From: Escherichia coli
GTDB lineage: Bacteria; Pseudomonadota; Gammaproteobacteria; Enterobacterales; Enterobacteriaceae
Strand: one strand, 5' to 3'
DNA: 64,000 bases
NCBI RefSeq assembly: GCF_016026235.1
Contig: NZ_CP065613.1
The notes under the pieces: model-generated
Told to the model about the DNA's origin: nothing
The model's input: only the letters and a program-made list of their open reading frames with translations
The model's database searches: none
Made by a program: the position numbers and the translations under genes
In this document: positions 52,669-57,534 of the stretch, piece by piece
Layout: each line of letters starts with the position of its first letter
Numbering within the stretch: the stretch's first letter is position 1

Positions 52669-55405
52669 ATGATTACAAAAGATATAGTTGTTAGTGCATA
52701 TAATTGTCTTAAGTCATATGCTTACTACGAAAACTTAAATTTTTTCCTAAAGGAAGAAATCGCTCAATTTGAAGATTCTCTCTATGACGAAAAAATAGAA
52801 AAAGTGGTTGATTTTTTTGAAAATAATAATGACATTAACTTTAATGAGTGGCTAAATAAAATTGATGTTGAATTATTACCAAAAAAAATTGATAGCCATT
52901 TGGATATTGAGCAAACGAGCGGAGCTCTTTTTTTAAGTAATAATAAGACATCAGATGAATACAAAGTAGGTGCTGTAAATTATTTGATCGTTGCTCCTAT
53001 TGAAATATATTTAATAGAAACACTCTGGTCTATCTTTGTTGGTTCAATGCTAGATGACAAGTTTTCTGATTCGGTTTATGGAAATAGAATATCAAAAGTA
53101 ATAAAAAATATTCTAAGAATAGTTTCGATGCGCCAAAAAACTCCTCAAAAAATATCTTTGAAAGATACATTGATAATTATAATAAATGGCGAGATGGTGG
53201 TATCGATAAAGCGATAGAAGTTATAGAAAAAGAGCGAAATGATGTTGCAATTCTTTCTCTGGATCTTAAGGGTTTTTATTATAATATAGATATAGATTTT
53301 GATGCCATTGATAGAATTATTGACGAAGAACAATTAGAAGAAATTAAAGCTCTTTCTATGTTGTTGAATAGTAAATTGAGGTTGATGCATCAAAAATACA
53401 GAGAGAAAATATCTCCATATATTGGTGTGACACATTCAACTCCTTCATCAAAAGGCATTCCAATTGGATTTACTTCTTCTGCCATATTATCTAATTGGTA
53501 TTTAATGGGTTTTGATAAAGATATTAAATCAAAAATTAACCCATCGTACTACGGTCGCTATGTGGATGATATTCTTTTAGTTTTTTCATCCCCGGACATT
53601 AAAAAAGAAGATAAAGGTGAAGAAGTAATAAAATTCATAGAGCGAACCCTTAATGGATTCATTAAACAGGCAGCGAATGATGAGAAAGGCTTTACGTTGA
53701 CCGAGAGTTATCATGAATTACCAATTCAAAAGGATAAATTGATTTTTCATTATTTCAATAAAGATCATAGTTTGGCTGGTTTACAAGTCTTCAAACAAGA
53801 AATTGAGAACAGAAGCAGTGCATTTCGTTTTTTACCGGAAGAACATATATCTAGCGATCTCGATAAATTTGCTTATGATATATTACTTGATGGTTCGGCA
53901 AATAAATTTAGAAGTATTGTAGGTTTGGCAGAGAATGAAACTGAATTATCAAAATATATATCATCACATATCTTAGCTCATAGGCTTTGCAATCTTCCAT
54001 CGAATGAGAATACCTTAAAGCAAATAACGCTGTTTTTTAAAGGTGAAAATTCTCTAAGGTTCAGTCGGTTATGGGAGAAAGTTCTATCGTATACATTAAT
54101 TACAAGAAAATATGGATTTTCAATCGCCTTTTACAAACAAATTAAAGAATCAATTAATAAAATTAAGTGGAAGGAAGGTGATAGTGTTATATCTCCAAAA
54201 CTTAAAAATGGAATGCAGAAATACATTGATATTTCTCTTTGTTTGAATTTGGCTTTGTTAGATTTAAATGTCATTTTAGGTGATAAAGAGCCACAAAATA
54301 GAGCTTTGGAAGGTTTGAAATCTTTAATTAAACAGTCCGATGGAATGTCTGTTCTAATTGAAAGATTTAGAAGCAGTAATTTGATTCGTCATAATCTAGT
54401 GTCTTGGCCTTTAGCTAACTATACTAAATATAAAGGAGATCTTACTGAGGAGAATTTATACAGTAAGATGCATGGTATTCCACTTGATAATGATAAATTA
54501 AATAAAACCCCTAGATATATTCATGCTGATGAAAAGCAGCTTTTCGATTTGATTGATGCTCTTCATACAAGAAAACTACATAAGTTTACGCATGAAAATA
54601 AGCATCACTTAAAAAATTGCTCTGTTACTAAGATAAAAGATAATAAAGCTCTTGAAATAAAGGTAGGAATTGATGATAGAAGTGGTAATGACACAATAAA
54701 AGTTGCGTTGGCAAATATGAGAGTTGAACGTCGTAATATTGAAAGTGCTTGCAGAAAAGATCAGTCTCCAAATTTAAGTTATGAACGACAAAGAAACCTT
54801 TATCGTATTCTCAACTCGGCAACTGAAGAAAATGTGCAGATATTACTACTCCCTGAGTTATCAATTCCTGTGTCGTGGTTACCTTTTATGGCAGCACATT
54901 CAAGGAGAAAACAAATATCTTTGATTTTCGGATTAGAGCATTGGGTTATTAACGAACGCGCATATAATATTTTGGTTGAAATGCTGCCTTATACTTCAAA
55001 CTTTAAACACAAATCCAGTATGTTAGTTTTTCGAGTGAAAAATCATTACGCACCTAGTGAGATTACGATGCTGAATTCTTTAAGGTTAAAAATATCCTCT
55101 CCTAAACCTAGTAAACAACGGTATCATTTGATTAAGTGGAAAAACGTATCATTTTCTACATACAACTGTTTTGAACTGGCTAATATCGAGCATAGAGCAT
55201 TATTTCGTTCGCAGTTGGATATTTTATTTGCTTGCGTATGGAATCAAGATATAAATTATTATCAACATATCACTGAGTCAGCGACACGGGATTTACATTG
55301 TTATGTGGCTCAATCGAATACTTCGCATTATGGCGGTTCTTGTGTTCTACAACCGACCAGTAGCACTATTTCAAATAAGATATATGTAAAAGGTGGGGAA
55401 AACCA
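52669..55405 (+). CDS. reverse transcriptase fused to a C-terminal nitrilase-like (CN-hydrolase) domain, UG/Abi (DRT-like) defence-type RT; frame switches by -1 within 53088-53217 and the 3-prime end is cut by an IS10-like insertion
   Basis: Track ORFs 52669..53217 (frame 1) and 53358..55409 (frame 0, open back to 53088) form one gene. RT motif A AILSLDLKGFYYNID at 53247-53291, motif B KGIPIGFTSSAILSNWYLMGFD at about 53451-53516, motif C YGRYVDDILLVF (YVDD at 53559-53570). C-terminal region has nitrilase-like Glu/Lys/Cys candidates (LLLPELSIP about 54855, FRVKNHY about 55038, STYNCFELANIE about 55167). Strongly AT-rich. Confidence 0.75.
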
Positions 55406-56700
55406 CTGAGGGATCCCCAGAAAATTTAGTAAACCATTATCATATTGGTATACCGTTGCTGTAGAACTTTCAGCCCTGCGTCAAGTGACAGTGTGTTTAG
55501 TATGAGTGGAGAATGTCGAATCACATTCTCCGCCAGTTTTAATAACGAGATGACTCGCCTGTGCTTCACTGTATTTGCCTGATATTTATGATGTATCCCT
55601 TTGTTTTCCAGGCTGAAACCGCTTAACCACATAATGATACTGGCTAATGTTGCGATCAGACTCAATACCGTGACCCGCCCGGATGAATGACTGGCACCAA
55701 ACCGTAGTCCAAATCCCCAGCGAGGATTTTTTTCATCCCTGAAATTTTGCTCAATTTGCATTCTACGGCTGTATAATTTCATTACCTGTTTTGGCGAGAA
55801 CTCAGTACTGTTTGTGAAAATAAACCATGGTGATTTCCCGGCAGTACGAGCTTTAGCCGTCACCGATGGTCTGGTTGCTCTTTCCTTCGAGCGTTTAAAT
55901 CTACGACCTTTAGGCTTACTTTTATAAAGATAAAAATGCCCTTCATGTTGTGCATTTTTATCTCGACCCAGCAGGCCTTCACCTAAATAAATTGCTGTCG
56001 TTGATGCTTTTGTGCCTGAGTCCGACACCTTTTCCCAGCCATTACCAACATTGTAATAATGATTGCCCAGTACCCGGCAAATATAGGTCCAGCCACGGGA
56101 GCGGAGCTGTTGGAACCATCGCCCCTGAAAACCGGCATCTGTAATAACAATGACATCAGTCCCGGGGGAAAAGCACTCAGCAAGCGATTCCAGAAAACGC
56201 TCATGTACATCTGCATTCGCTGTCTGTGATGATGGAACGACACAACTCATCAACGGTAAAGAACGCCCGTCACATGCCAGGCTTGCCCGCAAAAGCTGAA
56301 AACGAGAGGCATGATAAGCACTCCAGTCAATGAGTATCACAACACGAGACATTCCCCGCGTAATCTTTTGGGTAATTCGCTGAAAAATGGTGGAAACCTC
56401 ATTTTGCAAATGTCGATTCCCCAACAGTCGATCCACCCGCTTTATTTTGTTTTTAACTGATGCCGTACCGGTTAAATGACGCCCGATACTGGTAAGTGTG
56501 AGGGAAGCGCCATTTATTACAGCATTAGTTGCGTCAATCAGTGATTTTTGACGGTAAAGATGCAAAGGGGCCAGTATGTTGTTAAGGAAATTTTGGCATA
56601 ATGAACGTGCAGGCATAGTGGTGATCTCCTTGAAATTGTTAGCACAATCAATTAGATCACATCTCACTATGCCTGTCTTGTTTTCTGGGGATTCCTCAGG
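55406..56700 (-). mobile_element. IS10-like insertion sequence (IS4 family), copy 2, inserted into the 3-prime end of the RT-nitrilase gene
   Basis: Same inverted repeats and transposase as copy 1 (only one silent difference noticed, at 34613 versus 55679); flanked by a 9-10 bp direct duplication (g)ggaaaacca. Confidence 0.85.
55426..56616 (-). CDS. IS10-like (IS4-family, DDE) transposase, copy 2
   Basis: Protein identical to the copy-1 transposase; the longer track ORF (to 56715) runs out of the element into flanking DNA and is not the real start. Confidence 0.8.
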   Translation of the reverse strand: MPARSLCQNFLNNILAPLHLYRQKSLIDATNAVINGASLTLTSIGRHLTGTASVKNKIKRVDRLLGNRHLQNEVSTIFQRITQKITRGMSRVVILIDWSAYHASRFQLLRASLACDGRSLPLMSCVVPSSQTANADVHERFLESLAECFSPGTDVIVITDAGFQGRWFQQLRSRGWTYICRVLGNHYYNVGNGWEKVSDSGTKASTTAIYLGEGLLGRDKNAQHEGHFYLYKSKPKGRRFKRSKERATRPSVTAKARTAGKSPWFIFTNSTEFSPKQVMKLYSRRMQIEQNFRDEKNPRWGFGLRFGASHSSGRVTVLSLIATLASIIMWLSGFSLENKGIHHKYQANTVKHRRVISLLKLAENVIRHSPLILNTLSLDAGLKVLQQRYTNMIMVY

Positions 56701-56848
56701 GGAAAACCATTGCATCCTAACTACTACTTTAAATATATATGCATTGAGAGAGGCTCAATATCGTTCATTCAGAATTAACTCCGATACTATTAAACACAAT
56801 CCTCCAGGGTTTGACTATAATGCTCTATTAGAGCGAGGTGAGAAATGA
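56701..56848 (+). other. displaced 3-prime end of the RT-nitrilase gene (last ~48 codons plus stop) separated from the body by the IS insertion
   Basis: After removing the IS and one copy of the target duplication the RT frame continues ...VKGGENH|CILTTTLNIYALREAQYRSFRINSDTIKHNPPGFDYNALLERGEK to a TGA at 56846-56848. Confidence 0.65.
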
Positions 56849-57534
56849 GTAGCTTTTGGGAAGGTATTTTGTCATCAAGCATTTCATTTGCAATTATTGG
56901 ATTTGTTTGTAAGGCTTTTTTACAACATATTGATAAAAGAGAGTTAGAATCATTTAAAAATAAGTTGAAATATGAAAGTGAACAGAGAATTAAAGAGGAT
57001 GAACGTGCTTATAATTTTAAAAAAGCAAGAGATCTTGAAATCGGACGTTGGGGGTTAACATTACTTAGTGCTGCAAATGGTTTTTTAGGAAGGCTATGTT
57101 ATATTAAAGATCACAATGACCTATCGTCGGATCAATATTATATTGATAGTACAAGATTCTATCTATGCCAATATTTTTGCTGGGTACATCAATTCAGGAA
57201 AAATAGAGATTCATCTGTATTTTCACCAACTAATGATGAAATGTTAATAACTGAATTAATCAAAAATATTTCTATAGCCCTACGAGAGAACGATATTGGT
57301 TTTCCTTGTATTAGATCTCTTGAACAAAAGTATATAGGTGAAAGCCTTAGCATTGGTGCTGAATGTATGTCCTATAAAGATTTTATCGATTCTAAAGTAT
57401 TAGAAAACTATGCACCTCTAAATGATTTTGTTGAAGCAATTCTACAAAATAATAATAAAGATTATATCGATAAACTCGTTATCCCATTCCAAGATCTCAA
57501 GACCAGATTTGATGCGGCATTACAAAATAAATGA
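56845..57534 (+). CDS. uncharacterised membrane-anchored protein, translationally coupled to the RT-nitrilase gene (candidate partner/effector)
   Basis: 229 aa ORF; ATG at 56845 overlaps the reconstructed RT-nitrilase stop (ATGA); N-terminal hydrophobic helix SSISFAIIGFVCKAF; AT-rich like the RT gene; no family recognised. Confidence 0.6.
   Translation: MSSFWEGILSSSISFAIIGFVCKAFLQHIDKRELESFKNKLKYESEQRIKEDERAYNFKKARDLEIGRWGLTLLSAANGFLGRLCYIKDHNDLSSDQYYIDSTRFYLCQYFCWVHQFRKNRDSSVFSPTNDEMLITELIKNISIALRENDIGFPCIRSLEQKYIGESLSIGAECMSYKDFIDSKVLENYAPLNDFVEAILQNNNKDYIDKLVIPFQDLKTRFDAALQNK

Follow-up and report, generated by a model that had tools for sequence, protein, structure and literature searches.

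A decayed copy of the UG5-large RT-nitrilase and membrane-protein defence system in the remnant of a P4-like satellite at leuX of Escherichia coli

Here, we report the analysis of a gene for a reverse transcriptase (RT) with a fused nitrilase domain and of its membrane-protein partner, both carried on a 64,000-nucleotide stretch of Escherichia coli DNA (contig NZ_CP065613.1, assembly GCF_016026235.1; the whole stretch is called the window, and positions count from its first letter). The pair lies beyond leuX, the tRNA-Leu(CAA) gene that serves as attachment site of a P4-like satellite (51073 to 51157, plus strand; ARAGORN; Rfam tRNA, 59 bits), and beyond a P4-type tyrosine integrase gene (51309 to 52577, plus strand), which was recognised as an open reading frame (ORF) with a PHROG integrase match (E 1e-60) and by its orthologous position in intact satellites and which forms the left border of a defence hotspot. 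The RT-nitrilase gene, on the plus strand, is in three pieces: 146 N-terminal codons, read in the original frame as far as a run of A (52669 to 53108); a segment in shifted frame with RT motifs A, B, and C, the helical middle, and most of the nitrilase domain (53109 to 55405); and, beyond an insertion sequence (IS), the C-terminal 45 codons with the stop (56710 to 56848). It is followed by an intact partner gene of 229 codons (56845 to 57534, plus strand), which overlaps the RT stop by ATGA. A preliminary description of this DNA, made from the sequence alone, had taken the locus for an inactivated DRT type 1 (UG1-like) system (DRT, defence-associated reverse transcriptase) or for a distinct, not well described two-gene variant. 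We confirm what it observed; its interpretation is partly supported.

Joining 52669 to 55405 with 56710 to 56848 and restoring one A gave a protein of 958 amino acids (about 960 had been anticipated from the same three-piece join), with a single difference, M499I, from the intact E. coli protein WP_000628823. Translation placed RT motif A, AILSLDLKGFYYNID, at 53247 to 53291, motif B, KGIPIGFTSSAILSNWYLMGFD, at 53451 to 53516, and the catalytic YVDD at 53559 to 53570, exactly as first described, and Pfam RVT_1 matched residues 171 to 328 (E 9e-11). The motifs proposed to carry the catalytic Glu, Lys, and Cys of the nitrilase domain were LLLPELSIP (54843 to 54869, with the E730 codon), FRVKNHYAPSE (55029 to 55061, with the K791 and E798 codons), and STYNCFELANIE (55155 to 55190, with the C834 codon). 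In an alignment of 22 homologues, 43 to 81% identical to the query, the invariant positions included the YVDD box (Y298 to D301), E730 (in LLLPE), K791, N792, and E798 (in KNHYAPSE), and N833, C834, and E836 (in YNCFE).

An AlphaFold2 model built from this alignment (mean predicted local distance difference test [pLDDT], 78; predicted TM-score [pTM], 0.79) was compared with the PDB using Foldseek. A fold search was needed, since the sequence and profile search of the PDB returned DRT1 and RTs only and no canonical nitrilases. The C-terminal domain matched nitrilase-superfamily structures (E ~1e-7; target TM-score, 0.6 to 0.68), namely, CJ1056C, the Pyrococcus amidase PH0642 (1j31 and 6ypa), mouse Nit2, and formamidases, and the RT portion matched DRT9, G2L4, AbiA, and a diversity-generating retroelement (DGR). 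With hhalign, for which the PH0642 sequence was an exact match to PDB 1j31, E730 paired with PH0642 E42, and C834 paired with C146, the position altered in entry "6ypa C146A"; in phmmer and profile searches, C834 paired with DRT1 C1116, which is named as the catalytic cysteine (Neville et al. 2026 NSMB, 9yfd). The fusion of an RT to a nitrilase, as originally read from the sequence, is borne out, and the Glu/Lys/Cys proposal is supported overall, the Glu and Cys by alignment and the Lys by its invariance and fitting motif.

Both proteins matched PADLOC models over their full length. RT_UG5-nitrilase covered residues 1 to 958 of 958 (2254 bits, E = 0), a second UG5-nitrilase model scored 838 bits, and RT_UG5_small reached 474 bits over residues 2 to 644; the partner matched RTasTM over residues 1 to 229 of 229 (541 bits, E 5e-164). 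Cloned from E. coli E101 as pFR76, the same two genes were anti-phage in an assay at room temperature (Rousset 2022, PMC9122126), with the insert expressed from its own promoter (Rousset Table S2A). The pFR76 insert begins with 103 nt equal to window positions 52546 to 52648, with no mismatch, and the roughly 400 residues of protein 1 displayed in the table were identical to WP_000628823; protein 2 was identical to the 229-amino-acid ORF of the window. From this match and Table S2A, the upstream region with the native promoter was placed at 52546 to 52668 (plus strand). The window pair shares with the E101 system an identical transmembrane (TM) protein, an RT that is one residue off once repaired, an identical upstream region, and the int-psu position in a P4-like satellite at leuX; it differs in being a pseudogene (A-run frameshift and the IS, ISEc60) and in lying in a satellite of which IS1 has left only int, the cargo, and a remnant of psu.

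The pair had been classified before. It is number 29 in the Rousset catalogue, with 53 occurrences, and the Rousset table of 5,251 P4 loci includes WP_000628823 and WP_000094232. Mestre 2022 (PMC9226505) described UG5-large as an RT-nitrilase with TM cluster 1858 and reported that immunity needs the TM protein, and bioRxiv 2025.12.16.694600 called the architecture "canonical UG5-large" and described the E. coli 101 system as protective against a Podoviridae phage. Placement in the UG5 clade is taken from PMC9122126 and bioRxiv 2025.12.16.694600; in this analysis, the PADLOC scores support membership in the UG5 group. UG5-small belongs to the same RT clade but has its nitrilase in an ORF of its own (cluster 249) and no TM partner. 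We are highly confident that the locus represents the known UG5-large "RT-nitrilase + 1TM" anti-phage system in pseudogenised form, in the int-psu hotspot of a P4-like satellite at leuX. The system is a class 3 UG/Abi defence-associated RT and is also called DRT5L and Rst_RT-nitrilase-Tm, the last already in use as a defence-system type name. The gene pair is already published, validated by experiment, classified, modelled in a database, and picked up by standard annotation tools for defence systems, and no new architecture or mechanism is indicated.

The resemblance to DRT type 1 (UG1; Klebsiella pneumoniae, 9yfd) that had guided the first interpretation is real. Both are class 3 UG/Abi RTs in which the RT is followed by a helical linker and a C-terminal nitrilase, and the catalytic Cys aligns; among solved structures, 9yfd gave the best sequence match (E 6e-9 for the single sequence and 8e-25 for the profile); and some DRT1 members have a TM neighbour too (about 18% of drt1 genes, according to the literature). 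However, the PADLOC Drt1a models gave 96 and 49 bits on the RT core only (residues 137 to 357), against 838 and 2254 bits for the UG5-nitrilase models, and the protein has 958 residues, compared with 1200 to 1300 for UG1 (PMC9226505), DRT1 itself being about 270 residues longer. The RT also belongs to a clade different from that of type I DRT (Rousset 2022, PMC9122126), and DRT1 works without a TM protein. Nor is the two-gene architecture a new one, the E101 pair having been published (PMC9122126, PMC9226505) and PADLOC holding models for both proteins. A DRT type 1 system, or a new and poorly described two-gene variant, is therefore highly improbable here.

The RT core weakly resembles retron, group II, and Drt2/Drt3 models and PDB entries, which would fit a retroelement (a DGR, a retron, or a group II intron) in place of a defence enzyme. 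Against this, the NCBIfam scores were 26 to 57 bits, for cut-offs of 200 to 390, and a maturase or endonuclease domain is absent, in line with the original remark that intron-maturase and retron-like features were lacking. An Rfam scan of 50900 to 59200 (E <= 1) had the tRNA as its sole match, with no associated non-coding RNA (such an RNA is not expected for the UG5-large RT-nitrilase system), and the spacers between the genes measure only 91 nt and about 200 nt. We regard a retroelement as extremely improbable.

The partner, described earlier as membrane anchored, has one N-terminal hydrophobic helix at about residues 4 to 26 (hydropathy). Searches of NCBIfam, Pfam, and PHROGs returned nothing for it, and its family match came from PADLOC only. 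The preliminary description had asked whether the membrane protein is a constant neighbour of the RT. An overlapping downstream gene of 228 to 229 codons was present in the relatives from Cronobacter (78% identity) and Aeromonas (65%), but the Marinobacter relative (44%) was without one; this distribution agrees with the statement that the TM gene is present only sometimes (Mestre 2022, PMC9226505).

Two lesions break the window copy, as had been proposed. The frame change, identified by comparison with intact copies, is a 1-nt deletion that turns a run of seven A into six (53103 to 53108, plus strand); piece 1 in frame 0 meets a stop at 53217, and the protein resumes in the other frame just upstream. 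The second lesion is an insertion annotated in other E. coli as ISEc60 (IS4 family, IS10-like; 55406 to 56699, minus strand), which interrupts the RT-nitrilase gene at codon 913; its terminal inverted repeats are 22 nt long, and the target duplication of 9 to 10 bp, GGGAAAACCA, lies at 55396 to 55405 and 56700 to 56709. The insertion severs the last 45 residues, and no record of ISEc60 at this RT-nitrilase site was found among complete E. coli genomes. The longest ORF of the ISEc60 transposase (55426 to 56715, minus strand) begins within the duplicated target and RT sequence, 16 nt beyond the IS end at 56699, so that the true start is probably an internal Met (around ...TTMPARSL...); the listed length of 429 amino acids is a read-through artefact.

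The repaired operon was 99.86% identical to that of strain Res13-Lact-EA06-22 (locus L001), from which it differs by the 1-nt deletion and four substitutions, one of them amino acid changing (M499I); the membrane-protein genes of the two were identical. The closest copy, in E. coli FDAARGOS_943, has the same frameshift, the same four substitutions, and the same IS1-truncated psu layout, and its RT gene holds IS1, not ISEc60. Strain JNE170426 also carries the seven-to-six A lesion. Since FDAARGOS_943 and the window have the frameshift in common but differ in the IS, the frameshift came first, and the IS hits fell on an already dead gene. The deletion would part the N-terminal 146 codons from the remainder, which bears all RT catalytic motifs, and ISEc60 would leave the membrane-protein gene uncoupled from both the RT gene and the upstream promoter region. 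Because the gene is split by the frameshift, its last 45 residues are removed by the IS, and the TM gene is uncoupled, we infer that the system in the window cannot work.

An intact orthologue at leuX was found in Res13-Lact-EA06-22, where the gene for WP_000628823 (958 amino acids) is followed by that for WP_000094232 (229 amino acids). This pair stands between the leuX tyrosine integrase gene and psu, delta, sid-like, Icd-like, and alpha-type primase genes, that is, in a complete P4-like satellite. Collinearity between the window and the intact satellite extends across psu (polarity suppression) to 58279. What is left of psu (57736 to 58279, minus strand; PHROG Psu, E 3e-96, and collinearity) forms the right border of the hotspot and has lost its first codons to IS1 (58280 to 59047, plus strand; 768 bp, 23-nt inverted repeats), which replaces everything beyond. 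In the window and in the intact copies alike, the cargo sits between int and psu of the P4-like element. The "leuX island" of the preliminary description is what remains of a P4-like satellite cut off by IS1, namely, int, the defence hotspot, and psu, and the reading of its contents as anti-phage cargo beside an integrase at leuX agrees with the published defence function of the same pair. The foreign base composition also stood, with a fall in GC content from about 0.48 to 0.50 to about 0.29 to 0.36 over 52500 to 55500 and 56500 to 57500.

Relatives of the cargo and of psu occur in several settings. Some strains with an intact RT, e.g., strain 3359, have an annotated psu allele that is the same short one as in the window, WP_016234065; the defence cargo may therefore outlive the satellite. 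The Cronobacter pair (RT of 968 amino acids plus 229; L012, 4001 to 9841, and L013, 223 to 6063) is in a P4-like setting, with a primase-type gene upstream and a Psu fragment downstream. A TIR-domain gene comes after the pair, so that a single hotspot appears to hold two defence-type cargoes. The Aeromonas hydrophila pair (L014, 4001 to 7571; 65% identity) has Fe-S protein genes on one side and a K+ transporter gene on the other; neither an integrase nor psu occurs within 4 kb, which indicates that the module also exists outside P4-like satellites.

Within the species, megablast against 5426 complete E. coli genomes found the RT gene in 32; every copy was chromosomal and at least 99.7% identical. 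Half of the 30 full-length matches (15) were inspected directly, and the others were assigned by shared length and bit score group, four of the mouse-strain records also being TM-only loci in the Rousset table; on this basis, the RT was intact in 18 copies and broken in about 12, through at least four independent events. The lesions were the A7-to-A6 deletion at nt 429 to 435 of the gene (the window and copies H1 and H2), an A6-to-A7 insertion at nt 116 to 121 (H26 and H28), a stop at W174 (H17), a split by IS1 near nt 1800 (H3), and an additional IS1 near nt 300 (H1). The TM gene was intact in all 16 copies examined. We rejected an avoidance of the TM gene by the lesions: the RT gene accounts for 81% of the operon and is about four times as long as the TM gene, so that six of six lesions in the RT have a P value of ~0.28 by chance, and selection is not demonstrated. 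That the repeated loss of the RT-nitrilase with the TM gene kept reflects selection, whether as on/off switching of a costly abortive-infection enzyme or as an independent role of the membrane protein, is very unlikely; neutral decay is the alternative. The view that the inactivation in the window suggests a cost of carriage stays speculative, the recurrent inactivation of the RT being real but statistically indistinguishable from neutral decay.

A related idea is that the locus still functions or can be switched, with the A-run as a phase-variable switch or the membrane-protein gene acting alone. It draws on the two different homopolymer-A indels that recur in independent assemblies and on the uniformly intact TM gene. 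Runs of six or seven A are, however, short for efficient slippage, and homopolymer indels may partly be assembly errors. The window copy has, moreover, also lost the C-terminus of its nitrilase to an IS, and the copy in FDAARGOS_943 carries a second IS in the gene, as expected of a dead gene. The confinement of the lesions to the RT may be due to chance, given the gene lengths. We consider a functional or switchable locus very unlikely.

How the intact system might work can be outlined from its relatives. A purified UG5-large enzyme (DRT5L) and DRT1 both made DNA without added template and with RNase present, and the product was covalently on the protein. In a UG5-large system without a TM partner, the RT and nitrilase active sites were both required, and protection was seen only at low multiplicity of infection (bioRxiv 2025.12.16.694600). 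DRT11 of Sinorhizobium meliloti RMO17, the UG5-large system of that strain (bioRxiv 10.64898/2025.12.16.694600), is an RT-nitrilase fusion with YVDD and a Lys-Cys spacing of 43, and its abortive-infection-type defence needs both domains, but it has no membrane-protein partner, is 1005 amino acids long, and is on a megaplasmid rather than a satellite. In the E. coli system, the RT domain (YVDD) would make short template-free DNA primed from a residue of its own, as was seen in vitro for a UG5-large enzyme. Going by DRT1, the DNA adduct may then drive oligomerisation via the C-terminal nitrilase domain (E730-K791-E798-C834), and this assembly would both form the nitrilase effector and lock it under a C-terminal lid; in DRT1, the segment equivalent to the last 45 residues is a lid needed for activity. 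Release of the lock by a phage replication factor would let the nitrilase act on an essential substrate, with abortive infection as the probable outcome. The co-translated single-pass membrane protein, reported to be needed in the E. coli version, is presumably a co-effector; the authors of the DRT1 work speculate on a Hailong-like gating role for Drt1b.

Ser402, the priming residue of DRT1, is reported as unconserved among the other class 3 DRTs (Neville et al. 2026 NSMB). In the RT-nitrilase protein, the invariant segment RSSAFRFLP (53811 to 53837) falls within residues 380 to 421 (window positions ~53805 to 53930), and the loop that follows it (residues 388 to 421) is the part of the AlphaFold2 model with the lowest confidence (pLDDT, <50). 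This region, roughly where DRT1 Ser402 lies, is a candidate priming region, with the invariant S383 and S384 of RSSAFRFLP, or else Y403 or S416, as candidate primed residues.

Several points weigh against the reading as a UG5-large system and against the mechanism outlined for it. Among the profile searches, RVT_1 and the PADLOC UG5 models matched as anticipated, but the Pfam hmmscan of the RT-nitrilase protein returned RVT_1 alone and no CN_hydrolase; the CN_hydrolase assignment comes from the fold, from profiles, and from the published HHpred result, which gives CN_hydrolase at 99.7%. The hhalign alignment set K791 eight residues off the catalytic Lys of PH0642. K791 is less certain than the Glu and Cys and is put forward from its invariance, its K-x-H-x4-E motif, which matches PH0642 K113-I-H-L-F-Y-R-E120, and its distance to C834, which at 43 residues equals that between K833 and C876 of S. 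meliloti DRT11. Residues 330 to 496 gave no alignment with 9yfd, which leaves DRT1 Ser402 unmapped. The steps taken from DRT1 may not transfer to UG5-large, because DRT1 works without a TM partner.

The remaining features flank the pair. A terminator-like GC-rich hairpin followed by a T-run lies directly 3' of the operon (57571 to 57590, plus strand). A promoter scan gave 18 sites, compared with 20.7 expected from shuffled sequence, and, being no higher than shuffled sequence, supports no promoter claim of its own. On the other side of leuX, five ORFs occupy 44806 to 49854, between the positions of yjgR and ahr; we take them to be the idn (L-idonate) genes, of which the annotation backs idnK only. 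In Res13-Lact-EA06-22 (L001, 1649 to 4300), yjgR directly adjoins ahr, a presence/absence polymorphism just upstream of leuX.

The gain from this analysis is a correct annotation: the locus holds the UG5-large RT-nitrilase + TM system as a pseudogene, within a P4-like satellite that has decayed, and is neither DRT1 nor a new variant. Since a sizeable share of E. coli copies have a dead RT, catalogues that detect either gene alone and leave the intactness of the RT-nitrilase unchecked would overcount the system by including non-functional copies.

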